Shown: positions 3,085-16,613 of the stretch, piece after piece | Position numbering within the stretch: position 1 is the first letter of the stretch | How the letters are laid out: every line of letters begins with the position of its first letter | Assembly (NCBI GenBank): GCA_004524535.1 | Contig: SDNY01000078.1 | Location: 1-16,613, forward strand | Reading direction: 5' to 3' | DNA length: 16,613 bases | Origin: Promethearchaeota archaeon | GTDB lineage: Archaea; Asgardarchaeota; Lokiarchaeia; Sigyniarchaeales; SOKP01 | Notes under the pieces: generated by a model | The model's input: only the letters and a program-made list of their open reading frames with translations | Database searches by the model: none | Told to the model about the DNA's origin: nothing | Translations under genes and position numbers: made by a program

Positions 3085-4761
3085 TTGAATGTCATTGATC
3101 TTATTAGAGATTTAGAAATTAAGAAAATTTTTTTATATCAAATAATAATGAAAATCCCTAAACAAGAACAAGAAGCACCTGACAAAAATTTTACAGGACA
3201 TGTTAGAAATTTTATATTAGATATGGTAAAATTGAAACAAAAGAAGTTACACTATGTTAAAACAAGTAGAACTACTGAAGAATTAGAGAAAAATCTTTCT
3301 GACAGAGTACATTTATCAGATTTAGAATTAACAGAGGATTTAAAGAATAATGAAAAGAATATGTTAAGAGATTTAATTAATGAAGGAAACTTTATTCCCA
3401 TTTGTATTTTTAATGAAGAGGGACACATAACTTCTCTCTCAATGGGAATATATGGCAAGATCCATGAGCATATTCATTTTCCATATTTACGTAATTTATC
3501 TATATCTTATAAGGTGTCTGAACACATAAATTTTGTGTGTAAACATAAATCATCATTAAAAGTTCTAAAATTAATCAAAGAAGATTTAGAAGAAATCCCT
3601 AAATTATCTGATTTTATTCATCTTGAAGAGTTGGATCTTTCTAGAAATAAAATAGAGAATGTGAATTGGTTTGGAGATTTGCCTCATTTATGGTATTTAA
3701 ACGTTAGTAAAAATCAAATCACCTCACTTAAGGGTTTTAACGAACTCATCGGATGCCTAAACATAGAAGAGATTGATTTGTCAGGAAATTATATTTCTGA
3801 GCTCTATGGATTCGAGCCACTCAGACATTTTCCCAATTTAAAAACGATTAATTTAAAATGTAATAAAATCAAGAATTTAAATATCATTCACGACATTCCA
3901 AAGCTTAAGAGATTAGAACTAGCGAATAATCAGATTGAACAAATCACCGCTATTAAGAATCTTTCTAATGTTAAGATTATAGATTTATCAAATTGGTCAA
4001 AATCTTCTACAGACTGCCATAATCAAAATGAAATTACTAAAATTGAGAATCTTTATAATCTCCCAAATTTAAGTGAAATACAAGTTAAAGGAAATCCCAT
4101 AATATATTTCTCAGGAATTGAAAATTTACCTAATCTTGAGACAATTTGCTGTATCCAAAAAGAATTTTTACCAAAAAATTTTATTCAAGACTGGAAATTA
4201 TATTTTAAAAACCTAGGATTTAAGTTTTATTGGCCTCAAGATGGCTCTAATTCTCTTTTAATTATGAAACCCGAAATCACTCCTTTAAAATTTAAAATAA
4301 ATGAATTTCTCTCTTTGAAGCTTGATTCAGACACTGGTGAAACGATTATTCGTGTAGATGGTAAAAATTTTATGATTTGTAAATCATTGCTTTTACAGAT
4401 TCCAACTGATAACATTTACACATTCAATGAGATTCAATCTATTGATGAGCTAGAAGATATCATAGAATTTTATGACCAAGATTATGAGATCTCTCCCGAA
4501 ACGGAGTTTAGGGGACATTGCTCTAACCTTCAAGCTTGGTATGAAAATGACTATGATACCCGAATTCTTGTTAAACATATTGCTTTCCCATTATTGAAAA
4601 AATTAACTGAGGCCGGAGACTCTCTTGCTAAAAAAGTTTTTAAGGAAGAAATTGCCTCTCGATATGCATCAGGGTTCCCTACAGTTGTTGAATATCTTAA
4701 AAATGAAGGGTATTTGAATTACCTAACTGAAAATGAACTTAAATCATTGAATATTGAGTAA
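3085..4761 (+). CDS. Leucine-rich repeat protein with a C-terminal Lokiarchaeia-type conserved domain; true start may be ATG 3148
   Basis: SDS22-like LRRs (LEELDLSRNKIENV, LWYLNVSKNQITSL, IEEIDLSGNYISEL, LKRLELANNQIEQI). C-terminal FKINEFLSLKL...EFRGHCSNLQAWYENDYDTRIL...AFPLLKKLTEAGD..AKKVFKEEIA block, recalled from Lokiarchaeal paralog families. Confidence 0.85.
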   Translation: MNVIDLIRDLEIKKIFLYQIIMKIPKQEQEAPDKNFTGHVRNFILDMVKLKQKKLHYVKTSRTTEELEKNLSDRVHLSDLELTEDLKNNEKNMLRDLINEGNFIPICIFNEEGHITSLSMGIYGKIHEHIHFPYLRNLSISYKVSEHINFVCKHKSSLKVLKLIKEDLEEIPKLSDFIHLEELDLSRNKIENVNWFGDLPHLWYLNVSKNQITSLKGFNELIGCLNIEEIDLSGNYISELYGFEPLRHFPNLKTINLKCNKIKNLNIIHDIPKLKRLELANNQIEQITAIKNLSNVKIIDLSNWSKSSTDCHNQNEITKIENLYNLPNLSEIQVKGNPIIYFSGIENLPNLETICCIQKEFLPKNFIQDWKLYFKNLGFKFYWPQDGSNSLLIMKPEITPLKFKINEFLSLKLDSDTGETIIRVDGKNFMICKSLLLQIPTDNIYTFNEIQSIDELEDIIEFYDQDYEISPETEFRGHCSNLQAWYENDYDTRILVKHIAFPLLKKLTEAGDSLAKKVFKEEIASRYASGFPTVVEYLKNEGYLNYLTENELKSLNIE

Positions 4762-4888
4762 ATAAAACTAAGTATTTTGATAGACTTCCGTTTTTTCATA
4801 TCGTTTCTTTTTCCAAGTATTATATTCTAATGATTGCCGAATACGAAGAATCCTTAAATAATTGAATAGATAACAGATTTAGAAATAG

Positions 4889-5089
4889 ATTAAATTAATT
4901 TCATATCCAGATGGCAGAATTGTTTTTGTTTGCCCCCATCACAGAAAAGACTACGAACACGACAGAGATAATGATGAATGCATAATCGAAACTATAATTT
5001 TTGAGCAACGCTGGATAATCCTATGCGAACAACAACAACAATCCTTAAAACTGATTGATTTAACCAATACATTGATAAGAATAATTTAA
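4889..5089 (+). pseudogene. Start-less ORF fragment (IKLISYPDGRIVFVCPHHRKDYEHDRDNDEC...), probable decayed small gene
   Basis: Manual translation: open frame after TAG 4886-4888 with a protein-like CPHH segment; several stops upstream and no canonical start near its 5' end. Confidence 0.25.
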
Positions 5090-5289
5090 GTGACAAGATC
5101 ATAAGAGTTACAGAAAAAAACAGCAAAGACCACCTTATTCATATGGAAATAGTAATTGATATGTTTAAAAATTTAAACCTTCCTCAGCAGAAAGCAATTA
5201 AACAAGAATTTATATCAATGGAATTTAAAGCCGAGAAATTTTTAATTTATTTCACAAATAGGAACGATCAAATGCCCCGAATGTTTTAA
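5023..5289 (+). pseudogene. Disrupted small protein gene, possibly of viral/mobile-element origin (MRTTTTILKTD*FNQYIDKNNLSDKIIRVTEKNSKDHLIHMEIVIDMFKNLNLPQQKAIKQEFISMEFK...)
   Basis: 88-codon frame from ATG 5023 with a single internal TGA (5056-5058) at a position where Trp fits; amphipathic, protein-like sequence. Confidence 0.5.
5028..5041. repeat. (AAC)4 microsatellite
   Basis: AACAACAACAACAA read directly from the sequence. Confidence 0.7.
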
Positions 5290-5362
5290 CCTATTAGAAC
5301 CAGACGCGGATGATTGTTCTTGTTGTTGGAAAAACCCTTTAAGACAATTCGGATTAATATAG
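5246..5362 (+). pseudogene. C-terminal fragment of a small zinc-ribbon protein (FISQIGTIKCPECFNLLEPDADDCSCCWKNPLRQFGLI*)
   Basis: CPEC-x4-EPD-x3-CxC-x-WKNPL-x3-GLI pattern; no canonical start after the upstream TAA (5243-5245); T-run after the stop. Confidence 0.55.
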
Positions 5363-5371
5363 TCTTGTTTA

Positions 5372-5387
5372 TTTTTTTTAATTTTTT
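5372..5387 (+). terminator. Oligo-T terminator candidate after the zinc-ribbon fragment
   Basis: T8 plus T6 runs about 10 nt downstream of TAG 5362; archaeal intrinsic terminators are oligo-T tracts. Confidence 0.4.
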
Positions 5388-5438
5388 AGAATTCTATTTA
5401 AAAGGATTTTAGGATTACCTAATAACTCCGAAAAGGAT

Positions 5439-5455
5439 AAAAAAAAAAGAAGAAT
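5439..5455 (-). terminator. Oligo-T terminator of the precursor peptide gene
   Basis: Minus strand reads TTCTTC-T10 about 20-35 nt downstream of the peptide stop codon (plus-strand A10 at 5439-5448). Confidence 0.55.
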
Positions 5456-5472
5456 TAAGAATTTGTTCCCAT

Positions 5473-5535
5473 TTAACAGGAATCGCCACATTTGCATGCA
5501 GCGCTAGCTCTTTTTACTTTCTTTACTATTTTCAT
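5473..5535 (-). CDS. Putative RiPP precursor peptide, 20 aa, MKIVKKVKRASAACKCGDSC (not in the ORF track)
   Basis: ATG 5535 to TAA 5473 translated manually. Basic/hydrophobic leader plus a Cys-rich core ending in Cys; locally GC-richer than its flanks; own TATA-like box and T-tract; divergent from a radical SAM/SPASM gene 204 bp away. Confidence 0.8.
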   Translation of the reverse strand: MKIVKKVKRASAACKCGDSC

Positions 5536-5587
5536 TATTATCAAATCTATATGTAATTTTTGATCAAAGAAATATTAATTTTTTACT

Positions 5588-5595
5588 TATTTAAA
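5588..5595 (-). promoter_or_regulatory. TATA-box candidate (TTTAAATA) for the precursor peptide gene
   Basis: Matches the archaeal TTTAWATA consensus, about 52 nt upstream of ATG 5535 and preceded by purines (AGAGAA, BRE-like). The AT-rich background limits certainty. Confidence 0.4.
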
Positions 5596-5739
5596 TTCTC
5601 TGGTTATTAGGTATTATAAATATGATAATTTTAGAGTCCAGTATGAAAATTCAAGGATTAATTTTTGATGAATCTTTTCTCTTCGTGATTTTTATTTCAT
5701 TACATTAAACTTTTTATTTTCTTACTTCAATAATTACCT

Positions 5740-7080
5740 ATGAACCATGAATTTTTTCCATTTATTCCTAAAAATATTGTGTTAAGAAGATATGATGCAA
5801 TTGATCTCCTTAACTTAGACACTAATGAAGATTTTACAATTGATGAGGAAGCCTATGAATTATTAAAAAAGGTAAATGGAAAAATTCGTATCGTAGATAT
5901 AGTAAAAAAATATAATGACACTGAGGGTAAGAAAGTCCTTGAAGCTCTCGAATTTTTTGAAGAAGAAGGTATTATAAAATTAAGCGATACTGAGATAATT
6001 GATAAAACCGTAAATTCACTTAATCATTTGCATCTTCCAGAGAAGAATCCTTTTGATCCTCCCTATCTGAAATTCCTTATGATCAATATCACAGAAAAGT
6101 GTAATTTAAATTGCAAACACTGTTATATTACAGATAAAAACCAAGTAGATTTTTCTTTTGATAAATTAAAGGAATTAATTGAGGAATTCTATAATTTACA
6201 GGGAGAAAAGATTGTTTTAACAGGTGGAGAACCTTTCCTTTATGAAAAACTTGAAGAATTATTAGAATTTCTAATAGATATTCCATTAAAAAAAGTATTG
6301 TTAACAAATGGAGTATTAATTGAAAAGAAAAAACACTTGTTAGATTTAATAAAGGAGAATAATTTTGAAGTATTTGTAAGTATTGATGGTTTAGAAGATA
6401 CTCATAATGATTTTCGTAATGCGAATTGCTTCAACAATTCTATTCATGGAATACAATTGATGCTCAAAAAGAATATAACCGTTTCGATAAATACTATGGT
6501 TCATAAACAGAATTTAAAAGAATTTGATGAATTATCTGCTTTTCTAAAATCGTTTAGCAGCATTAAGACTTGGAACGTCGAGGTACCTACATTCGATGAC
6601 TCAACTCCTCAAAATATATTAGAAAAATATGATATTTCCCCAGAAGAAGGAGGTATAATCATGAGAGATTATTGGTGGGGAGAATCTTATGATTCTAGTG
6701 GAGCTTCTTTTGGGACTCTATCTGAAGATGAATCCACTGAGGATCTATTAACAGAAGATCAAGGGAAACCTATGGGCTATGCTTGTGGACCATTTTTAAT
6801 GGCTATTGATGTTTTAGGTCAAGTATCTAAGTGCGGTTTTTTTACAGAAAAAAGTCCTGGTAATGTATTTGATTTAGGAATCAAAAAAAGTTGGGAAGGA
6901 ATTCAAAAAAATTCTGTTTGGAATATTCAAGATCTGAAATGCAGTGAAATTAATTGCGATGTTATTGAAGAGTGTCGTGGAGGTTGTAGATATCGTGCCT
7001 TAAAACACACTAAAGATCTTTATGGAGTAGATGCCTTTAAATGTATTGCATATAATAAAAATCATACCAAACTAATTTAA
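5740..7080 (+). CDS. Radical SAM/SPASM-domain protein with an N-terminal PqqD/RRE-like domain; putative peptide maturase
   Basis: CxxxCxxC (CNLNCKHC, 6100-6123), LTGGEP, LLTNG, VSIDG; seven-Cys SPASM C-x15-C...C-x4-C-x5-C-x3-C-x18-C with CRGGC; ~85-aa N-terminal extension with three short beta-like segments followed by helices, RRE-like. Confidence 0.9.
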   Translation: MNHEFFPFIPKNIVLRRYDAIDLLNLDTNEDFTIDEEAYELLKKVNGKIRIVDIVKKYNDTEGKKVLEALEFFEEEGIIKLSDTEIIDKTVNSLNHLHLPEKNPFDPPYLKFLMINITEKCNLNCKHCYITDKNQVDFSFDKLKELIEEFYNLQGEKIVLTGGEPFLYEKLEELLEFLIDIPLKKVLLTNGVLIEKKKHLLDLIKENNFEVFVSIDGLEDTHNDFRNANCFNNSIHGIQLMLKKNITVSINTMVHKQNLKEFDELSAFLKSFSSIKTWNVEVPTFDDSTPQNILEKYDISPEEGGIIMRDYWWGESYDSSGASFGTLSEDESTEDLLTEDQGKPMGYACGPFLMAIDVLGQVSKCGFFTEKSPGNVFDLGIKKSWEGIQKNSVWNIQDLKCSEINCDVIEECRGGCRYRALKHTKDLYGVDAFKCIAYNKNHTKLI

Positions 7081-7106
7081 TATAATTATAATTTAAGGTT
7101 AAAATA

Positions 7107-7352
7107 ATGGCTAAAAAACACACAATTTTAAGAACTGAAGAAGATATAAGCCCTTTAAATAGGCAGCTAATAAACGCCGTTTGCCATAAATGTAATTTCT
7201 ATGCTGAAGACCAGGAATATTGGGAAAGAGAATATGAATGCGCCGCCTATAAATTCATTCGACAAATGGTAAAAGAGAAAAAAATAACCATAGATCAGAT
7301 CGAAGAGATTTTTAAGGGAGTAGACTTAAATCCAGAGAGAGATTTAAAATAA
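7107..7352 (+). CDS. Small Cys-containing protein co-transcribed with the radical SAM gene (CxxCxFY...ECxAY)
   Basis: 26 bp downstream of the rSAM stop on the same strand; AAGGT RBS-like motif; CHKCNFY...YECAAYK, a potential metal or Fe-S ligand set. Confidence 0.8.
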   Translation: MAKKHTILRTEEDISPLNRQLINAVCHKCNFYAEDQEYWEREYECAAYKFIRQMVKEKKITIDQIEEIFKGVDLNPERDLK

Positions 7353-7354
7353 AA

Positions 7355-7885
7355 TTAAATAAATCTGGCTTTTTCCATCATGAACCGAGCAATTTTATTG
7401 AAGATTTCTTCCACATTCTCACCCGTTTTTGAAGAACATTCCAGATAATCATAAAATTGAAATTCTGATGCAATATTCTCAGCATCAATCCGAGATATAG
7501 TCCGTCTTTCATTTAGGTCCAGCTTTCCTCCAACAATTATCATTGGAACCTCTTCCACTTCTTCTTCTTTAAAACTCTTTTTAAACACATTTAGCCATTC
7601 ATTCACACTATTAAGACTGGTATATCGCGTAATATCGAACATAAAAATAACGCCATTTGCGCCCTTTGCATAACTGGGCAATAGAAATCTAAATCGATCC
7701 TCACCCGCAAAATCCCATATTTGCAATGTCACTTTTTTTCCCTCTATTTCAACAGCTTTTATGTGAAAATCTACACCAATCGTTATTGTCCCTTGAGCAA
7801 ATAATCCGGTTAGATATCGATTTATTAATGTGGTTTTACCAACCCCTCCATCCCCAAAAACGAGTACTTTAAACTTAAATGACAT
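7355..7885 (-). CDS. Rab-like small GTPase with a variant G3/G4
   Basis: G1 GDGGVGKT, G2 ITIGVDF, G3 WDFAGE, RFR (RabF-like), G4 GGKLD, G5 CSSKTGENV. Confidence 0.93.
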   Translation of the reverse strand: MSFKFKVLVFGDGGVGKTTLINRYLTGLFAQGTITIGVDFHIKAVEIEGKKVTLQIWDFAGEDRFRFLLPSYAKGANGVIFMFDITRYTSLNSVNEWLNVFKKSFKEEEVEEVPMIIVGGKLDLNERRTISRIDAENIASEFQFYDYLECSSKTGENVEEIFNKIARFMMEKARFI

Positions 7886-8113: not shown

Positions 8114-9805
8114 CTATTGTTTTTCTGATTCCATTTCTCTTAATTTTCTTCGAAATATTTTACCGACGGCGGTTCGCGGTAATGATCTTAGGAACTCCAC
8201 TTTCCGTGGATACTTATATCCGGCCAATTTTTCTTTAGCCCAATTTATGATGTCGCTTTCATTGACTTTTCCATCTCTATATTCGCTCTTTAGAACTATA
8301 AATGCCTTAATAGTTTCACCAATATTTGGATCTGGAACACCTATTGCTCCGGCTTCTAGAATTGCAGGATGCTCCATCAATTTCTCTTCCACTTCCCTTG
8401 CCATTACCTTGTAACCCTTGTATTTAATCATATCTTTGGTTCGGCCTTCAATATAGAAGTATCCTCGTTCGTCCATTCGTGCAAGATCGCCTGTCCTTAG
8501 CCAACCATCCACAATATCTTGTTTCGTAGCTTCTGGGTTTTTCCAATATCCTTTCATTATTTGAGGTCCTTTAATCAATAGTTCCCCAATTTCGTTGGGT
8601 GGGAGTTCCTCTAAATTATCGGGATTGACTATTTTTGCATCAGTATCGATAATTGGAACGCCAATACTTGCTGGTATTGTTTCTGGCATCCATCCTGCAG
8701 CCGTATGTGAGAAGGACGATGTCTCTGTCATACCGAACCCCTGTCCTACAGGCCCCACGACTTTCTCCCATCTATCAGCGAGCTCCGGAGCTAATGCTGC
8801 TGAACCAGAGGCAGTTCTTTCAATGCTAGAGAGATCTCGCTCTGTAAAATCAGGGTGATTGATCAGCATTTGAAACATGACAGGGACACCTACAAATAGT
8901 TTAATTTTATAATATTCAATTGCTTCCAAGATTTCAGCCGGATTAAAAGAATCAAACATTACCATCATTGGGACTAAATAGAATGTACAAATCATTATTT
9001 CGAATCCAAAAACATGGCATAATGGCAAGATTGATAGACCTACCCCATTACCTATATTCTCTTCAATTTCTTCCTCAGCCATATAAAGCATTGAAAGAGC
9101 ACTATGAATTATATTATCATGTGTCAGCATAACCCCTTTAGGCAAACCAGTTGTGCCCCCGGTAAACATTAAAGCAGCAATATCATTAGAAGGGTCAATA
9201 TCCAAGGAAGGTGGTTTTGGTGGGCTTCCGTTTATAAATTCTTCAAGAGTAATAGTATCTGGTTTTGCGTCTTGAGTACCTAGTAAAATTAAATTCTTGA
9301 TTTCAACTTCTTTTCCTGCTTTTTTGATTGTTCTATAATTGGCTTTATGGGCAAAAATGGCTTTAATATTGCCAGCTTCCCGAATTATATGAGTCACATC
9401 TGATTCTTTAAGAAGAGGATTTATAGGCACTACCGTAGCTCCAGATTCTATTATACCTAGGAAACAAAATATAAACTCAGGGCAATTTATAGACATTACA
9501 CCTACAGCATCCCCTTTTGAAACACCTAATTCGGATAGTGCGTTTGCAATCTTATCAGCATAATGTAATAATTCTCGATAAGTATATTTTTTATCTGTAG
9601 GTTTATGATAGAGAAATACATTATTTGGGAATTTGCTCACTGATAACCTTATAAATTCGCTGAGTGGAATTGGATCAAACCTTATCGTTTTCGCCACTGT
9701 GGAAGGGCGATATTTTAACCATGGTCTATTTAGATTCACATACGGCGAATCATTCTCGTAATCTATAATTGGTTTCCATTCTGAATAATCTTTTATAAAA
9801 ATCAC
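8114..9805 (-). CDS. fadD: Long-chain fatty-acid--CoA ligase (ANL adenylate-forming family)
   Basis: AMP-binding signature FTGGTTGLPKG, GFGMTE, GWLRTGDLA, GRTKDMI, LPRTAVGKI; GTG start. Confidence 0.9.
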   Translation of the reverse strand: MIFIKDYSEWKPIIDYENDSPYVNLNRPWLKYRPSTVAKTIRFDPIPLSEFIRLSVSKFPNNVFLYHKPTDKKYTYRELLHYADKIANALSELGVSKGDAVGVMSINCPEFIFCFLGIIESGATVVPINPLLKESDVTHIIREAGNIKAIFAHKANYRTIKKAGKEVEIKNLILLGTQDAKPDTITLEEFINGSPPKPPSLDIDPSNDIAALMFTGGTTGLPKGVMLTHDNIIHSALSMLYMAEEEIEENIGNGVGLSILPLCHVFGFEIMICTFYLVPMMVMFDSFNPAEILEAIEYYKIKLFVGVPVMFQMLINHPDFTERDLSSIERTASGSAALAPELADRWEKVVGPVGQGFGMTETSSFSHTAAGWMPETIPASIGVPIIDTDAKIVNPDNLEELPPNEIGELLIKGPQIMKGYWKNPEATKQDIVDGWLRTGDLARMDERGYFYIEGRTKDMIKYKGYKVMAREVEEKLMEHPAILEAGAIGVPDPNIGETIKAFIVLKSEYRDGKVNESDIINWAKEKLAGYKYPRKVEFLRSLPRTAVGKIFRRKLREMESEKQ

Positions 9806-9897
9806 CTTAAAAATATCTGTATTATTATAATTTTAAATTATTTATATTTGGTTTATGAATATTAATAAATATTTCGTTGACTTAAATGAGTAGCTCT

Positions 9898-10457
9898 CTA
9901 ACTGCGATTCACATAATTCAAAAAAGCCTTAACGACCATATGAAATCTGGGATCGGGAACAACAGTTAGATGGTCTCTACCTTGGATCTGAAAATGACAT
10001 GCTCCAGGTACTAATTTTGCGAATAAAGTTTTAAAGCATCAATTACAGATTTGTATCTAACCGTTGTATACTTATTACTTGGAGGTAGTACAAATCCTCC
10101 CAGAATTGCACAATTAATACGGTTAGGTTCACGAATTAGCAAATTCAATGTAATTCAAGAGCCCATAGAATACCCAAAGAGATTAGCTTTTTGGATGGAT
10201 AAATGGGCCATTAATTTTATAACATCTTCCCCCATTTTTATACCGTATTGAGCAGGAACTGTAGGCTTATCGCTTTTTCCGTGTCCTCGACAATCTATCA
10301 GAATTAAACGATTCTCATCCTTGAGATTCTTTATCCAATTTGATACTTTCCAATTGATTTCAATATTTGCTGCAAATCCATGAATCATAACTAAATTTGG
10401 ACCTTTTCCTTCAATTTCATAGTAAATTTTAACTCCCTCATTATCAAAATATGGCAT
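9898..10457 (-). pseudogene. Alpha/beta-hydrolase pseudogene with a premature TGA, internal deletion and frameshift
   Basis: HGF oxyanion motif, DCRGHGKSD, and nucleophile GYSMG followed by S and then TGA (10155-10157). The frame continues ITLNLLIREPNRINCAILGG. After a frameshift near 10030, the C-terminus FAKLVPGACHFQIQGRDHLTVVPDPRFHMVVKAFLNYVNRS* ends at 9898. The cap region and catalytic-acid strand are missing. Confidence 0.85.
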
Positions 10458-10691: not shown

Positions 10692-11624
10692 TTGGAATTT
10701 CTTAAAAAAGAGGGATCAGAGAGGAAAAAAATACTTTTTACGGGTTTGGATTATGCAGGAAAATCCTCAATTATATTGTCGTTTAGAAGAGAAATAGAGA
10801 AAATTGCCGTAGCTAAGCCTACATTGGGTGCAGAGAGAAGAAATTTTGAATTTATGGGAAAAGAAATTAGTGAATGGGATTTAGGAGGGCAAGAATATTA
10901 CCGTATTTCCTATTTAAAAAATCCATCCAGATACTTTGACAAAACTGAAATTGCGATTTATGTTATTGATATTCAGAATCCTGATCGATTCTCAGAGGCT
11001 CTTTCTTACTTAAGTGATGTTGTTAAACAATTTAAAAAACTTAAGATTGAACCTCCAATTTATGTGTGGTTCCACAAAGTGGATCCGGATATTTACAAAC
11101 ATCCAGATGCGCAATTAGTAAAAGCTGCGACGAATTTAAAAAATAAGATTGAAAAAGAGATTAAGTATAAAAAAATCAATTATTTCAATACAACAATATT
11201 TGATTTATCTACAATAATTAATGCGATGTCTAAAATTTTTCAGACCTTATTCACTAAAGCAGAGTTTGTTGATCAAGCTGCAGAAGAATTCGCAAAAAAG
11301 TTTAATGCAGAGGCCGTTGAGCTTGTGGATGATAATTCACTTATTATTGGCTCATATTATAAGAATTCCGAAGTGGAGAATATTTTAAAAGAATCTACAC
11401 CTTATTTCCTGACGTTAAACGATAGACTAGATACTGCACAAGTAAAAGATGAAAATCCTGAAGATGTTATGATGGTCCGTAGATTAGGGAAAAACTTTTT
11501 ATTCAAACGATTTGTAATTGAAAATTCTCCGCCATATTATCTTTTAATGATTAAAGATGACCCTACCTTTAGTAAAGAAGAACTTGATGTATTTATTAAT
11601 TTATTAAATGAAATTCTATTCTAA
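10692..11624 (+). CDS. Arf/Rag(Gtr)-like small GTPase with a C-terminal roadblock-like domain
   Basis: G1 GLDYAGKS, G2 PTLG, G3 WDLGGQ, G4 HKVD (Rag-type), G5 TTI; ~120-aa C-terminal alpha/beta domain (AVELVDDNSLIIGSY); TTG start after GGTGG. Confidence 0.85.
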   Translation: MEFLKKEGSERKKILFTGLDYAGKSSIILSFRREIEKIAVAKPTLGAERRNFEFMGKEISEWDLGGQEYYRISYLKNPSRYFDKTEIAIYVIDIQNPDRFSEALSYLSDVVKQFKKLKIEPPIYVWFHKVDPDIYKHPDAQLVKAATNLKNKIEKEIKYKKINYFNTTIFDLSTIINAMSKIFQTLFTKAEFVDQAAEEFAKKFNAEAVELVDDNSLIIGSYYKNSEVENILKESTPYFLTLNDRLDTAQVKDENPEDVMMVRRLGKNFLFKRFVIENSPPYYLLMIKDDPTFSKEELDVFINLLNEILF

Positions 11625-11789: not shown

Positions 11790-12671
11790 ATGAAAATGTC
11801 CATAAAAAAAAAGGAAAAATCATTAACAGCTCAATATTCTTCTCAAGTTCACTCTTTTTTTATCCTTTTAAATACAGGTATTTGTATATATAGTAGAGAT
11901 TTTACAAAAAGATTAAAGAAGGTTGATACATATTTACTTTCTGCTTTACTCTCGGCTTTATTTTCTTTTTCCAAAGAACTTACATCAAAACAATTAGATG
12001 CTATTGAAATGTTTGATTTAAAGCTAGCCTTTAAAAGAAAGGACAAATTCATCTTCGTTATTATTTCAGACGAAACTGTAAGTCAAATATTTTTATTCGA
12101 TTGTTTGGAAACAATATCTTCTCATTTTTTGTATTTTTACGAGAAATTGGGCCCTTCACGAGACTACGAGGTTATTAAAGACAAAAAAGTAGATCTTATA
12201 ATTGATTCAATCGCTAAGGGCCTCATAGATCCTCTATTTTATCGGTCTCCCCAAAAAATCGAAAATTATTTTAAAAATTTAATCATGGATAATGAGATTA
12301 TAGGAGCAGCCATGTTATCCATAACAGGAAGAATTTATTACTCCTCTCTCCCCAAAAAAATATTAATCAATTCTCTAAAAGAATTAGAAAATATTTCTAA
12401 AGAAGTATTAAATGAAGTTTATGAAGTTTATGAAGTTTTAGAAAAGCGAAGATCCGTAAAAACTATAAGAGAGATAATTAAACGGGGGTATCCTAAAGTT
12501 TCGATATCCGTTTTAAAGAATGGACAGAAAATATTCTCGAAACAAGTTTCTCATAAAAAACTTTTGAGTAGAAATTACATCATCATAATTTTATACGATT
12601 CAAAAGTTAAGTTAGGAATCGCAGAACTAAGCCTAATGAAAATAGCCAAAAATATTAAAAAGCTCTTATAA
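11790..12671 (+). CDS. Longin-like plus roadblock/profilin-like two-domain protein
   Basis: N-terminal VHSFFILLNTGICIYSRDF...LLSALLSALFSFSKEL...FIFVIISD matches the longin pattern; C-terminal IIGAAMLSITGRIYYSSL...VKLGIA is roadblock-like. Confidence 0.7.
   Translation: MKMSIKKKEKSLTAQYSSQVHSFFILLNTGICIYSRDFTKRLKKVDTYLLSALLSALFSFSKELTSKQLDAIEMFDLKLAFKRKDKFIFVIISDETVSQIFLFDCLETISSHFLYFYEKLGPSRDYEVIKDKKVDLIIDSIAKGLIDPLFYRSPQKIENYFKNLIMDNEIIGAAMLSITGRIYYSSLPKKILINSLKELENISKEVLNEVYEVYEVLEKRRSVKTIREIIKRGYPKVSISVLKNGQKIFSKQVSHKKLLSRNYIIIILYDSKVKLGIAELSLMKIAKNIKKLL
12412..12438 (+). repeat. Perfect 9-bp tandem repeat (ATGAAGTTT)x3 inside a CDS, encoding EVY-EVY-EVL
   Basis: Read directly at 12412-12420, 12421-12429 and 12430-12438. 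Confidence 0.9.
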
Positions 12672-14328: not shown

Positions 14329-15000
14329 ATGCATATACCTGATGGGTTGTTAGATCCTGTAACAACTGTAATATTATGGATAGTAGCTGTTTTAGTGTTG
14401 ATTATTGCGTTTTGGAGATTAAATATATTATTTCAAGACGAAGAATCGGAGAGACTTATTCCATATATAGGAGTCCTCGCCGCAACGATATTCGCTTTTC
14501 AATTTGTAAATTATCCTGTACCAGGTGGTACATCTGGGCATTTAGTTGGTGGTACTCTGGTAGGAGTAATTCTTGGTCCTTGGGCAGCAGTTATTGTATT
14601 ATTCATGGTATTGGTTGTACAGAGTTTATTTGGTGATGGAGGAATTACGGCTCTTGGCGCAAATACTTTCAATATGGGAGTAATTGGTGGCATTGTTGGC
14701 TTTTATATAGTAAAAGCACTTCTCTTGATTTTTAATAAAACTGAACTGAAAAAAGAAATAAAAGTCCCGATCGCTACTGCCATTGGTTCTTATATCGCTA
14801 TAGTATTAGCTGCGTTTATATGTGGTATTGAGATTGGAATTGGAGGCATTATTCCTATGGATATTGCGATAGCTGCCATGGTTTTCTGGCATGTTCTTAT
14901 TGGAATAGGAGAAGCGATTATATCTGGTCTAATTGTGTGGTTCGTTTATAAAACAAAGCCTGAATTAATCATTACAGAAAAAATGCTGGGGGTGGCTTAG
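14329..15000 (+). CDS. cbiM: ECF Ni/Co transporter substrate component CbiM/NikM
   Basis: N-terminal MHIPDG metal-binding motif, PVPGGTSGHLVGG, QSLFGDGGITALGAN, HVLIGIGEA. Confidence 0.93.
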   Translation: MHIPDGLLDPVTTVILWIVAVLVLIIAFWRLNILFQDEESERLIPYIGVLAATIFAFQFVNYPVPGGTSGHLVGGTLVGVILGPWAAVIVLFMVLVVQSLFGDGGITALGANTFNMGVIGGIVGFYIVKALLLIFNKTELKKEIKVPIATAIGSYIAIVLAAFICGIEIGIGGIIPMDIAIAAMVFWHVLIGIGEAIISGLIVWFVYKTKPELIITEKMLGVA

Positions 15001-15002
15001 AA

Positions 15003-15320
15003 TTGGTTGAATTGGAAAGATATAAATGGCCTATTATTTCAATTATCGTTATAATTGGAGTATTAATGCTAATGATTGCAATTGGATTTATGTTAGGGAT
15101 ACTCTCAGAAGATCCAGATGGTCTTGAAAGAGCATTAATTGATATTCGAAGTGAAGAATGGTTAGAAGGACTAGCTTCTCCATGGGAACCAATTTTGGGC
15201 TGGATTGATAATGATTATATTGCTGGTATAATAGGTATATTATTAACTATTTTCCTAATTATCGCTGTATTTTCATTAATCTCCCATATAAGCAAAAAAA
15301 TGAAATCCAAAAATGAATAA
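15003..15320 (+). CDS. nikN: PDGLE-domain protein (NikN-like accessory component)
   Basis: Two TM helices flanking SEDPDGLE; 2 bp after the cbiM stop; TTG start after GGTGG. Confidence 0.85.
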   Translation: MVELERYKWPIISIIVIIGVLMLMIAIGFMLGILSEDPDGLERALIDIRSEEWLEGLASPWEPILGWIDNDYIAGIIGILLTIFLIIAVFSLISHISKKMKSKNE

Positions 15321-15329
15321 CTAAAATTA

Positions 15330-15344
15330 TTTTTTTTTTTTTTT
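15330..15344 (+). terminator. T15 tract after nikN, terminator candidate
   Basis: 15 consecutive T starting 10 nt after the stop at 15320. Confidence 0.55.
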
Positions 15345-15531
15345 AAAATGAAATCTTACGGATTAATAAAGTAAATTAATTAATCAATAATTTAAATTTG
15401 GAGAGTCTTGTTTCCTCCTTTTTTAGAATAGAGATTTTACATAATTTTTGTTTTATAAAGAAAATTAATTTAAAATAAAGAGATATTATTAATTTATAAT
15501 AAAATATGAAAACTTTTGGAGCCATTAGGAA

Positions 15532-16329
15532 TTGGAAACAATTTTACCATTTAGGCACGAAGACGAGAAAACACTTTTAAATAAAGTGCATCCTACAGTT
15601 AGGATAATATTACCTTTTATTTTTGTAATTCCATTTCTTCTTATCAATAGTATTTACTTAATATCCACCTTCATAATAATTACATATTTCTTTAGCGTGA
15701 TCGCATGTTTACCTCTTTTGAGAATTATCTCCCGGTTAAAGAATATAATCCCTTTCATAATTTTAATTACCGTTTTTATTCCATTTTATATAGGAGAAAC
15801 TATAATCTTTCGAATTGAAATAGGAATTACACTTAATATTTATAAAGAAGGATTATCGCGAGCGTTATTATTATTTATGAGAATTTTTGGAGCCACATTT
15901 ATTTTTATGTCATTCTTTTCATCCTTAACATATTCAGAGTTTATTGAAGCTCTAAAAACTATGAGGCTTCCTTCTTTTTTTGTTGGTAGTTTCATTATAA
16001 TGCTTCATTATATTCCAATCATAGCCAGTTCAAATAAAAAAATATTAGAGGCTCAAGAACTCCGAGGTAAAAAAATAACGAATTATTGGGAAAAATTAAA
16101 AGCCCATGCTTATGCAATGGGAAAAAGTCTTGTAGCGAACATGGAACGTAGCGAAAAATTATACGAGAGTCTAAAAATGCGAGGGTTTACCGGTAAGCTA
16201 ACGTTTGCGTCGAGGAGAATTAAAATAATTGATATAATGCTGTTGCTACTCTTTCTTGCTATTGCTGTATATTTTATTTATTTTATAAATCTAGTAGAAT
16301 TATATAAAGAGGTTTTTGCTCTATTTTAG
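15532..16329 (+). CDS. cbiQ: ECF transmembrane T component CbiQ/NikQ
   Basis: LNKVHPTVRI, ALKTMRLP, AQELRG and SEKLYESLKMRGF coupling-helix motifs; TTG start after GGAG/AGGA. Confidence 0.9.
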   Translation: METILPFRHEDEKTLLNKVHPTVRIILPFIFVIPFLLINSIYLISTFIIITYFFSVIACLPLLRIISRLKNIIPFIILITVFIPFYIGETIIFRIEIGITLNIYKEGLSRALLLFMRIFGATFIFMSFFSSLTYSEFIEALKTMRLPSFFVGSFIIMLHYIPIIASSNKKILEAQELRGKKITNYWEKLKAHAYAMGKSLVANMERSEKLYESLKMRGFTGKLTFASRRIKIIDIMLLLLFLAIAVYFIYFINLVELYKEVFALF

Positions 16330-16613
16330 CTGTAGAAATAAAAAATTTGAATTTTAGCTATAAAAATGGTTTTAGTGTTCAGAACTTATCGTTAAAAATA
16401 GAAGAAAACTCAATTTATGCTTTAACGGGAAATAATGGTTCAGGTAAAACAACATTATTAAGGTTGTTAGTTGGGTTATTAAAACCAAAATCTGGAACAA
16501 TCAAGATTTTTGATGAAGTCCTTACGAGAAATAGAAAGCAATTATGGAAGGTTAGGCAAAACATTGGATTTTTATTCCAAAATCCCGACGATCAATTATT
16601 TGCTCCAACTATA
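16323..16613 (+). CDS. cbiO: ECF ATPase CbiO/NikO, partial (runs off the right edge); probable ATT start
   Basis: Manual translation ILAVEIKNLNFSYK...GNNGSGKTTLL (Walker A)...IGFLFQNPDDQLFAPT (CbiO Q-loop); overlaps the cbiQ stop. Confidence 0.9.
   Translation, partial: MLAVEIKNLNFSYKNGFSVQNLSLKIEENSIYALTGNNGSGKTTLLRLLVGLLKPKSGTIKIFDEVLTRNRKQLWKVRQNIGFLFQNPDDQLFAPTI

Follow-up and report, generated by a model that had tools for sequence, protein, structure and literature searches.

A conserved 20-codon gene accompanies a radical SAM/SPASM enzyme and a small three-cysteine protein in Asgard archaea, probably as part of a widespread peptide-maturation cassette

Introduction

Does a 20-codon open reading frame, skipped by gene callers, encode a genuine peptide in an Asgard archaeon, and is this peptide the substrate of the radical SAM/SPASM enzyme that is encoded beside it? 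RiPP clusters have been predicted in Asgard, TACK and DPANN archaea, but the number of archaeal RiPP products identified so far is small (PMC12144867). In the passages available, the literature on Asgard RiPPs describes predicted clusters in general terms only. The window analysed here, which is the whole stretch of 16,613 nucleotides, carries the short reading frame, the gene of the enzyme and the gene of a small three-cysteine protein, named p81. Here, we describe this locus and its relatives in Asgard genomes and in metagenome contigs. The comparison indicates that the window probably carries the form that a widespread and unnamed peptide-maturation cassette takes in Asgard archaea of the Lokiarchaeia type, and that the peptide would be the substrate of the enzyme.

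Results

The peptide gene lies on the minus strand at 5473-5535. The radical SAM/SPASM gene, which encodes 446 amino acids, is on the plus strand at 5740-7080, and p81, an 81-residue protein, is encoded on the same strand at 7107-7352, its reading frame starting 26 nt past the enzyme stop. The ATG of the peptide, at 5535, and that of the enzyme are 204 bp apart in a head-to-head arrangement. An element resembling an archaeal TATA box, TTTAAATA, is located at 5588-5595 on the minus strand, 53-60 nt upstream of the peptide ATG. An oligo-T tract at 5439-5448 of the same strand (T10, ten A on the plus strand) lies 25 nt past the peptide stop and is terminator-like for an archaeal gene. Re-reading of the window confirmed the coordinates, the divergent layout and the downstream 81-residue gene of the initial annotation, as well as the TATA-like box and the T10 tract, both of which have counterparts at homologous loci.

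The reading frame at 5473-5535 translates as MKIVKKVKRASAACKCGDSC, followed by the stop codon. The product can be described as a basic leader of 13 residues, MKIVKKVKRASAA, and one C-K-C-G-x-x-C core, in which the C-terminal cysteine is the last residue. At a G+C content of about 29%, short reading frames are abundant. Those of at least 20 amino acids that overlap positions 4700-7400 number 33, so that the micro-ORF, taken on its own, is not beyond chance; it might be a chance reading frame or belong to a regulatory, non-coding element between the two divergent genes. No RNA cover was obtained for it. Metatranscriptome run X24 has contigs from a relative that lie over parts of the enzyme gene (6103-6138 and 6214-6446) and over p81 (7113-7278, with 4 differences) and cover no part of 5473-5535; since they represent a small share of the words, they have no bearing either way on transcription of the micro-ORF.

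However, several features of the micro-ORF are at odds with a chance origin. Translation of the 3.66-Mb genome in six frames gives just 14 frames with C.C...C directly before the stop, and the micro-ORF is the sole one among them with an ATG that yields 15-60 amino acids. Homologues are found near orthologous radical SAM genes, and conservation of the amino acid sequence extends to at least 17 distinct sequences from Asgard archaea and 26 from elsewhere. In 13 homologues, both synonymous codons are in use for the invariant cysteine, lysine and glycine residues, and T-runs are present 3' of the stop codon. Besides the window, L009, L011, L012, L014, L020, L021, L038 and L044 have the TTTAAATA box in identical or nearly identical form and at a comparable distance. 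Rfam gave no match in positions 4600-5800 at E up to 1. Because the micro-ORF is unique in its genome, has homologues near orthologous enzymes and varies at synonymous positions, we conclude that this unannotated 20-codon frame is, by comparative sequence evidence, a real gene. A chance or purely regulatory origin is very improbable.

The Asgard homologues are composed of a basic leader of 13 residues and one to three CKCGxxC units. Asgard and non-Asgard peptides have in common positions M1, I/V3, K/R5, K8, C14, K15, C16 and C20, and the window peptide matches the 20-residue pattern (M1, K8, C14, K15, C16 and C-terminal C20) position by position. No NCBIfam family was found for the window peptide (E up to 1) or for four longer homologues (E up to 10), and no Pfam family above threshold was found for the peptides.

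An ortholog of the enzyme is present in 22 of the 60 Asgard genomes searched, including the genome of the window (G000); the four relatives with single-contig genomes (G043, G044, G049 and G054) gave no match. A 23rd match, in G033, is a paralog with 31% identity and was set aside. The relatives are labelled Promethearchaeota, Hodarchaeota, Helarchaeota and Borrarchaeum, in agreement with the Asgard setting that had been proposed. The peptide profile matches 18 of the 60 genomes, with at most one or two matches in each. All 18 are among the 22 enzyme-bearing genomes, and none of the 38 genomes that lack the enzyme has a match. Four enzyme-bearing genomes have no profile match; in one of them, G059, a variant was seen by eye. 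The proposed tie of the micro-ORF to the enzyme and to the 81-residue protein is thereby borne out.

The position of the peptide gene varies among these genomes. It is head-to-head with the enzyme in the window, L009 and L026, and co-directional and just 5' of the enzyme in L010, L014, L020 and L021. In other Asgard loci it is 0.8-10.5 kb from the enzyme, and in G004, G010, G030, G031 and G057 it is on a different contig. This frequent separation by kilobases or by contig weighs against the peptide being the substrate of the enzyme. As the position varies, the linkage goes beyond frozen synteny.

The cassette is not Asgard-specific but occurs in many sequences of other anaerobes, and the Asgard form is one branch of a cassette that is common in metagenome contigs. 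In the metagenome set, 313 p81-like matches were confirmed and 80 loci were retained. Of these, 76 have a p81-like gene directly 5' of a homologous enzyme; the remaining 4 loci break off no more than about 330 nt from the p81-like gene. In every locus where the enzyme is complete and 120 nt or more of sequence remain 3' of it (52/52), clustering of small reading frames revealed a gene on that side for a 20-residue peptide that fits M[ST]IKKV.KKFS..CKCKASC. These metagenome contigs have a G+C content of about 47%, and the source names of the non-Asgard relatives include Thermodesulfovibrionales and Archaeoglobus; a p81-like gene is present in the genome of the cultured Archaeoglobus sulfaticallidus. 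The enzyme of the window has 33-37% identity to P0093-P0121 over 96-98% of its length, the N-terminal domain included. Purifying selection acts on the micro-ORF, and its tie to a dedicated enzyme extends from Asgard archaea to the sequences with the labels Thermodesulfovibrionales and Archaeoglobus.

The two forms of the cassette differ in several respects. In Asgard genomes p81 is 3' of the enzyme and the peptide gene is divergent, distant or upstream, whereas the non-Asgard order is p81-like gene, enzyme and peptide. Core position 17 is glycine in the window form and lysine in the non-Asgard form. Among the Asgard relatives of the window, the core is expanded to two or three units in tandem, compared with the 20-residue non-Asgard form. 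Furthermore, the p81 of the window has an N-terminal extension of 13 residues relative to its non-Asgard counterparts, and the enzymes of its subclade alone (alignment A2) have an acidic insertion, absent from the non-Asgard enzyme, which corresponds to residues 317-344 (6688-6771, plus strand) and is modelled with low confidence (pLDDT <50).

A match to PF04055 of 81.5 bits (cut-off 29.5) identifies the enzyme as a member of the radical SAM family. The radical SAM core, residues 115-268 (6082-6543, plus strand), has the CxxxCxxC motif made of C121, C125 and C128 and the segment G162-G163-E164, all invariant in alignment A2 of 37 sequences. The SPASM domain (6772-7059, plus strand) matches TIGR04085 with 31.5 bits (cut-off 27), and its seven cysteines, C349, C365, C401, C406, C412, C416 and C435, are invariant in the same alignment, as is D35 of the N-terminal domain. 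This domain, residues 1-90 (5740-6009, plus strand), belongs to an AF2 model with a pLDDT of 88.8 and consists of strands 6-8, 13-17, 21-25 and 30-34, followed by helices 36-42, 51-55 and 60-75. In this model it has an RRE-like fold. The structural alignment with SuiB covers it, and profile alignments extend into the N-terminal domains of TigE, CteB and SuiB. However, Pfam gave no PqqD match for residues 1-110, and nothing below E 0.09, which is a point against the preferred reading. The RRE that the initial annotation had placed at the N-terminus thus stands as a predicted fold with modelled leader binding.

The top structural matches of the enzyme are peptide maturases and anSME. The best Foldseek matches are SuiB (5v1s, E 2.5e-15), CteB (5why, E 6.4e-15) and SkfB (6efn, E 3.3e-14). 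VIA-align superimposed model residues 109-441 on anSME (4k38) with a Z of 25.0 and an rmsd of 3.2 over 305 residues, and model residues 5-443 on SuiB (5v1q) with a Z of 24.1 and an rmsd of 4.5 over 386 residues. In NCBIfam, the enzyme matches no equivalog: the best hit has 103 bits where 525 are required, and none among the 25 best reaches its cut-off. Distant homologues of the enzyme are likewise without equivalog. PADLOC matches to pVip, the anti-phage viperin-type radical SAM enzyme (E 7e-21), cover residues 115-279 only, which is the generic radical SAM core; p81 has no PADLOC match.

Leader binding was modelled with the enzyme of G008, an ortholog with 81% identity, and its own 42-residue peptide, not with the 20-residue peptide of the window. 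The complex scored 0.77, versus 0.12 for the best of 3 controls; among 80 solved complexes 58 attain that mark, and among 110 mismatched pairs 2 do. Separate runs share at least 46% of contacts, and the partner has a pLDDT of 42-44. On the enzyme side, the modelled interface is formed by residues 30-35, 37-38, 41, 65-66, 69, 72 and 76 of the N-terminal domain and by residues 309-317; on the peptide side, it is formed by residues 1-6 and 8-13. The model places the leader only, the core being unplaced, and the partner's own fold is uncertain. Two solved leader-RRE complexes, SuiB-SuiA (5v1t) and ChlB-ChlA (9gm3), appear among the PDB matches of the enzyme, and the passing score may reflect likeness to them. 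This, together with the use of the G008 pair, tempers the support that the model gives to the peptide as substrate.

The small protein p81 is directly downstream of the enzyme in 22/22 Asgard loci examined. Across these loci its identity is 73-95%, compared with 47-80% for the enzyme. Residues C26, C29, F31, E37, C45 and K49 are invariant. A p81 profile matched 77 representatives (E ≤1e-3), and the wider family keeps the motif C-x2-C-x-FYK...LECGA[FY]K: p81-like proteins have C-x2/3-C followed by a further cysteine, with FY after the second cysteine and CGA[FY]K at the third. Tandem-fused forms exist, as in the 145-residue protein of L026 and in P0241, and would suggest that p81 forms a dimer. 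The 424-residue P0317, listed as a cluster 'member', is unrelated once its sequence is read. Pfam has no match for p81, NCBIfam has no equivalog for p81-like proteins, and the ESM Atlas returned 'hypothetical protein' clusters only. The predicted fold of p81 is a three-helix protein; against 48,161 PDB representatives, the best Z was 3.7, with no usable match.

The initial annotation described a minimal three-gene pathway. This is doubtful, as a CrtI-like FAD oxidoreductase, of the CrtI/amine-oxidase type, co-occurs with the cassette and is often adjacent to it. It is found in 21 of the 30 longer metagenome loci and directly adjoins the module in G013, G016, G024 and G029. In the genome of the window it sits on another contig (C138:63860-65383).

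p81 is better conserved than the enzyme that it constantly accompanies, and could therefore be the substrate itself rather than a 'partner', either as the real or as the ancestral one. Its three invariant cysteines would then be cross-linked to nearby conserved acidic or aromatic residues, the recurrent flavoprotein would finish a protein-derived cofactor, and the 20-residue peptide would be an accessory (a metal donor, a regulator or a competing RRE ligand). Such a pathway would resemble the QhpC/QhpD/QhpG system, and the tandem-fused forms and the motif kept across the wider family are consistent with it. However, the leader-plus-core peptide is as faithful to the enzyme as p81 is, both in metagenome loci and in Asgard genomes (18/22 versus 0/38), and the modelled ligand of the RRE-like domain is the peptide. 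Moreover, p81 is predicted to be folded, without a leader and core arrangement, and the likeness to QhpC/QhpD is one of gene content, with no homology seen. We consider p81 as the substrate an unlikely reading.

The core of the peptide also resembles metallothioneins, so that it might bind metal unmodified. In that case the peptide would be a metal or cluster ligand that serves the enzyme and p81 as scaffold or carrier when they assemble or deliver a metal centre, and no covalent cross-link would form. The C-K-C-G-x-x-C units occur in one to three copies, and a 42-residue homologue gave sub-threshold Pfam matches to the metallothionein families PF02068 (13.8 bits, cut-off 31.8, E 0.076) and PF01439 (10.1 bits, cut-off 23, E 1.7). 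In the window, L043 and L050, the module has CbiM/N/Q metal-uptake genes close by. A conserved protease or exporter gene is missing from its flanks, which bears out the absence noted in the initial annotation and would suit such a ligand. However, the metallothionein matches are far under the cut-offs, and two other homologues have none. A single-unit peptide has just three cysteines, and the one or two copies at most per Asgard genome are confined to enzyme-bearing genomes. The conserved 13-residue leader, together with the RRE-like domain, is characteristic of peptides that an enzyme is directed to modify. An unmodified ligand is less probable still than p81 as the substrate.

Discussion

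Our preferred reading is that the 20-residue product is a precursor peptide of which the lysine-rich leader, in the model, docks as a β-strand on the RRE-like N-terminal domain of the enzyme. We infer that the enzyme would then modify the C-K-C-x-x-x-C core. The most likely modification would be a sulfur-to-carbon (thioether) cross-link, made with the help of auxiliary clusters held by the seven-cysteine SPASM domain. p81 would be an obligate partner, acting as an accessory or carrier protein or as a second substrate, and the CrtI-like oxidoreductase, although unlinked in the genome of the window, probably contributes a further step. With no conserved protease or exporter gene next to the module, the product probably stays inside the cell, where it may be metal-binding or cofactor-like. 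Taken with the constant p81 and the recurrent flavoprotein, this absence points to a cellular role, in a cofactor, metal handling or redox, rather than to an antibiotic.

A more tentative reading joins these elements. From the peptide, the cassette might make a new cofactor or metallophore that strict anaerobes use inside the cell. The radical SAM/SPASM enzyme would cross-link the seven-residue core, and the CrtI-like flavoprotein would subsequently oxidise or desaturate it, possibly at the invariant C-terminal cysteine. p81 would serve as the dedicated carrier or apo-protein, and Lokiarchaeia-type Asgard archaea would have multiplied the core to two or three units. We regard this combination as possible but improbable in full.

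The peptide is among the shortest candidate RiPP precursors. The cassette would offer a first handle on post-translationally modified peptides in Asgard biology; its three small genes lend themselves to expression in E. coli, with mass spectrometry as the readout. A literature search found no paper on the cassette; supplementary tables of genome-mining papers may list such loci as 'ranthipeptide' clusters.

Comparison with known systems

The cassette is probably a variant of RRE-dependent radical SAM/SPASM peptide maturation, apparently undescribed. The maturases of the SCIFF/ranthipeptide system (CteA-CteB, PDB 5WGG/5WHY), SuiB, SkfB and TigE have the same radical SAM core and seven-cysteine SPASM domain and bear an RRE, to which the predicted fold of the N-terminal domain corresponds, and CteB, SuiB, SkfB and TigE are among the best structural or profile matches of the enzyme. 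As in SCIFF-type systems, the precursor is short and cysteine-rich with a basic leader, which is here modelled on β3/α3. SCIFF peptides occur as a single conserved copy per genome and are not known to have a dedicated protease or exporter, and the cassette is alike. Unlike in SCIFF, the peptide and the maturase fall below curated NCBIfam cut-offs. Moreover, the precursor has 20 residues with a seven-residue core ending in cysteine, a small three-cysteine protein is always paired with the enzyme, and a CrtI-like flavoprotein recurs.

In VIA-align, the catalytic and SPASM part of the enzyme has its highest Z with anSME (PDB 4K36-4K39), a match that reflects a shared fold only. anSME has no RRE domain such as that predicted for the enzyme of the cassette, and its substrate motif, C/S-x-P-x-R, is absent from the cassette. 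The QhpC/QhpD/QhpG system, which matures the gamma-subunit of quinohemoprotein amine dehydrogenase inside the cell, likewise combines a small cysteine-containing protein, a radical SAM/SPASM enzyme and a flavoprotein. In contrast, the flavoprotein of the cassette is CrtI/amine-oxidase-like, a separate 20-residue peptide is present, and there are no dehydrogenase subunits. With metallothioneins, the peptide has in common the C-x-C and C-x-x-C spacing, lysine beside cysteine and units in tandem; unlike them, it has a conserved leader, a strict coupling to a radical SAM enzyme and Pfam scores below the cut-offs.

Gene layout and the 20-codon gene

The contig, which constitutes the entire window, is 16.6 kb long with a G+C content of about 29%, and the genome totals 3.66 Mb. 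The micro-ORF (5473-5535, minus strand), which translates to MKIVKKVKRASAACKCGDSC, has its ATG 204 bp from that of the gene for a 446-residue radical SAM/SPASM enzyme (5740-7080, plus strand). The gene for p81, a protein of 81 residues (7107-7352, plus strand), starts 26 nt past the enzyme gene. A TTTAAATA box (5588-5595) is located 53-60 nt 5' of the micro-ORF ATG, and a T10 tract (5439-5448) lies 3' of the gene. Our reading of the window thus bears out the arrangement given in the initial annotation. The stretch of about 710 bp between an LRR gene and the micro-ORF (4762-5472) has no ORF of at least 60 aa, and Rfam gave no match within 4600-5800. Family searches identified Ras/Roc- and Gtr1/RagA-type GTPases, the LRR protein and a weak longin-domain match; two Ras/Roc-type GTPases, the Gtr1/RagA-like GTPase and the weak-longin protein are encoded at 2441-2977, 7355-7885, 10692-11624 and 11790-12671. 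Such GTPases and longin-domain proteins are typical eukaryote-like Asgard genes. Close homologues of the enzyme and p81 come from sources named Promethearchaeota/Promethearchaeia, 'Lokiarchaeota', Hodarchaeota, Helarchaeota and Borrarchaeum.

As 33 ORFs of at least 20 aa overlap 4700-7400, the micro-ORF by itself is not beyond chance. Judged from sequence comparison, its uniqueness, homologues and coding signature nevertheless show that it is a true gene, and we regard a chance ORF as highly improbable. Genome-wide, 14 six-frame translations end in C.C...C-stop, and only the micro-ORF has an ATG giving 15-60 aa. Conserved micro-ORFs near orthologous radical SAM genes, which the initial annotation had suggested looking for, are present in relatives: they encode the same 13-residue basic leader (consensus MKIVKKEK.T.AA in Asgard peptides) and, C-terminal to it, between one and three C-K-C-G-x-x-C units. 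Two class-level relatives have a single-unit 20-mer resembling that of the window. A profile built from 13 such peptides matched 18 of the 60 Asgard genomes searched, all within the 22 that carry an enzyme ortholog, and none of the 38 others, a contrast that overstates independence because the genomes are kin. Still, within one genus, peptide and enzyme are both present in four of eight genomes and both missing from the other four. The profile search did not find the peptide in four enzyme-bearing genomes (G013, G022, G058 and G059); a variant peptide that the profile missed was spotted by eye beside the enzyme gene of G059. Across the homologues, both synonymous codons are used for the invariant Cys, Lys and Gly residues, and most often the genes share two flanking elements, a box resembling TTTAAATA and a run of T downstream of the stop codon.

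The peptide gene of the closest relative, G008 (L009:3092-3220), has three core units, while that of the window combines the start of the first unit with the end of the third and last, in frame. Compared with G008, the one-unit gene looks like an in-frame repeat contraction; possibly, it is an assembly collapse of the repeat. The peptide match in another genome (locus L067, G030:C162:470-583) is interrupted by a TAA, with fragment frames containing CVCGGGC units, and this copy may be decayed or mis-assembled.

The enzyme and its N-terminal domain

The enzyme scored 81.5 bits against Pfam Radical_SAM and lies above the cut-off of the SPASM model TIGR04085, while no curated NCBIfam equivalog came near its cut-off. 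Aligning 37 homologues showed no variation at C121/C125/C128, at the GGE motif (162-164) or at seven C-terminal Cys. In the AF2 model (mean pLDDT 88.8), residues 6-75 form four short strands and three helices that precede the catalytic barrel. The top Foldseek matches comprise the peptide maturases SuiB, CteB, SkfB and TigE, as well as BlsE and anSME. With VIA-align, anSME was the best match to the catalytic part (Z 25.0, rmsd 3.2, 305 aligned), and SuiB aligned over residues 5-443 (Z 24.1, rmsd 4.5, 386 aligned), a span that therefore takes in the SuiB RRE domain. Alignments from a profile search of PDB sequences reach into the N-domains of TigE, CteB and SuiB. The Pfam PqqD model found no match in residues 1-110, and for that reason we term the RRE proposed in the initial annotation RRE-like on account of its fold, and not a proven member. 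An acidic insertion of low model confidence (residues 317-344, window 6688-6771) is found only in the subclade of the window (P0002-P0009 in the enzyme alignment).

Modelling of the peptide with the enzyme, a check put forward in the initial annotation, needs at least 30 residues, so the G008 enzyme, 81% identical to that of the window, was modelled with its own 42-residue peptide. The complex scored 0.77 (runs 0.79, 0.77 and 0.76) against 0.12 for the best of three controls. Of 80 solved complexes, 58 attained the mark of this complex, as did 2 of 110 mismatched pairs. At least 46% of contacts are common to the runs, with a partner pLDDT of 42-44. Peptide residues 1-6 and 8-13 make confident contacts with enzyme residues 30-35 (the final N-domain strand), 37-41, 65-76 (its third helix) and 309-317. 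The acidic insertion adjoins this last segment, which contacts the Lys-rich leader. The model places the leader only, not the core, and supports a putative binding of the leader to the RRE-like domain. The docking follows the same classical leader-on-RRE mode as solved complexes, and since such complexes are already solved, the score may in part reflect likeness to them.

The partner protein p81

The p81 gene directly follows the enzyme gene in all 22 Asgard loci examined. In close loci p81 is more conserved than the enzyme (identities of 73-95% versus 47-80%); in four distant Asgard loci its identity is 32-41%. Residues C26, C29, F31, E37, C45 and K49 are invariant. Structure prediction gives a small protein of three helices (pLDDT 85.8); a PDB structure search with this model gave no usable match (best Z 3.7), and Pfam and NCBIfam contain no family for it. 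By analogy with the QhpC/QhpD/QhpG logic, p81 itself might be the substrate of the enzyme, which we consider rather unlikely.

When 1.84 billion representatives were searched with a p81 profile, 77 proteins matched at E ≤1e-3, among them Asulf_02007 of Archaeoglobus sulfaticallidus. They share C-x2-C-x-FYK...LECGA[FY]K and have 47-90 aa, or 110-146 aa where tandemly duplicated. Helarchaeota- and Borrarchaeum-type relatives have the domain in tandem, as a fusion of 134-145 aa or as a pair of neighbouring copies (L026:677-1114, minus strand; protein P0241; L091 and L092 near 9780-10171). The existence of tandem-fused forms suggests that p81 may function as a dimer. In one Promethearchaeota genome, a copy with a TTG start lacks the first ~13 residues (L089:10031-10207); it has no enzyme gene within 10 kb and, judged by eye, is flanked by purH-like and nucleotidyltransferase/HEPN-like genes. 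A 120-residue metagenome protein, P0274, has a stretch like the initial strands and helix of the RRE-like domain, N-terminal to a p81-like domain; either a genuine fusion or an error in gene calling could account for it.

The cassette beyond Asgard archaea

A metagenome scan with non-Asgard p81-like proteins gave 313 confirmed matches, from which 80 loci were kept. The p81-like gene lies immediately 5' of an enzyme homologue in 76 of them, and the remaining four loci end within ~330 nt of it. The enzymes of these loci are ~47% identical to homologues P0111 or P0114, which are 33-36% identical to that of the window. Screening the loci for Cys-rich micro-ORFs with at least 4 Cys found none; small-ORF clustering of the flanks brought out a 20-aa gene immediately downstream of the enzyme in 52/52 loci, counting those in which the enzyme is complete and the sequence continues for at least 120 nt past it. 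This peptide type, M[ST]IKKV.KKFS..CKCKASC, is identical to the window peptide at M1, I3, K5, K8, C14, K15, C16 and C20. Because non-Asgard loci carry a p81-like gene, the enzyme and a position-matching 20-aa peptide, the trio is, as far as sequences tell, ancestral. By the same comparison, the single-unit 20-mer is the standard form of the peptide, and the cassette extends far beyond Asgard archaea and is not specific to them. The Asgard branch differs in gene order, in having Gly instead of Lys at peptide position 17, in a core that has grown to 2-3 units in many genomes, and in the N-terminal extension of p81.

Neighbouring genes

In agreement with the initial annotation, which had noted no adjacent protease or exporter, family searches of the Asgard loci and the window found no protease or transporter conserved beside the module. 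Among 30 metagenome loci of at least 6 kb, 14 encode an ATP-grasp-like protein and 21 a CrtI/amine-oxidase-like FAD protein. This flavoprotein family also directly adjoins the module in four Asgard genomes (G013, G016, G024 and G029); the ortholog in the window's genome is on a separate contig, C138. Of 17 genomes among the 60 that have the flavoprotein, 14 carry the module, and the other three belong to the same genus and are 71-82% complete. All matches at E ≤1e-60 fall in the five genera g1, g3, g4, g6 and g9, each containing module carriers, and none was found in eight carriers (G011, G012, G017, G026 and G056-G059). The flavoprotein is probably a fourth component, although not a universal one.

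Cobalt/nickel uptake genes (CbiM with a small gene behind it, plus CbiQ in the window) lie no more than a few kb from the module in three Asgard loci (window 14329-16613; L043:16038-17032; L050:7435-8383), which may reflect synteny among kin or a metal-handling link. Four Asgard loci (L038:12842-13738; L040:12453-13313; L042:3284-4177; L044:11123-12016) have, downstream of the module, a gene for a DUF1848 protein that also gives a weak radical SAM signal.

Proposed function and comparison with known systems

We consider it fairly probable that the enzyme, guided by its RRE-like domain, would modify the C-K-C-x-x-x-C core of the peptide. With seven auxiliary-cluster Cys instead of eight, the enzyme described here would have one iron open to a substrate thiolate, as in CteB. 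The only non-Cys residues conserved in both branches are K15 in the core and M1, I/V3, K/R5 and K8 in the leader. Thioether cross-linking is the leading option for the core chemistry, although a tentative one. That the peptide instead serves, unmodified, as a metal ligand and scaffold seems quite unlikely. The carriers appear anaerobic from their source names, and this, together with the lack of an export or cleavage gene and the single copy per genome, points to an intracellular role of the cassette.

According to the accessible part of one paper, predicted RiPP clusters, radical SAM types included, are spread over Asgard, TACK and DPANN, and the number of RiPP products identified from archaea is small (PMC12144867). 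The accessible parts of two further papers (PMC13635244 and PMC13036324) and of a 2026 bioRxiv preprint about archaeal bacteriocins deal with other systems only. Our literature searches found no title or abstract describing the peptide, p81 or the cassette; supplementary tables might list the loci as generic 'ranthipeptide' clusters. The enzymology class, peptide maturation by radical SAM/SPASM enzymes, is already familiar; noteworthy in this system are the overlooked 20-codon gene, the orphan partner protein p81 and the broad conservation.
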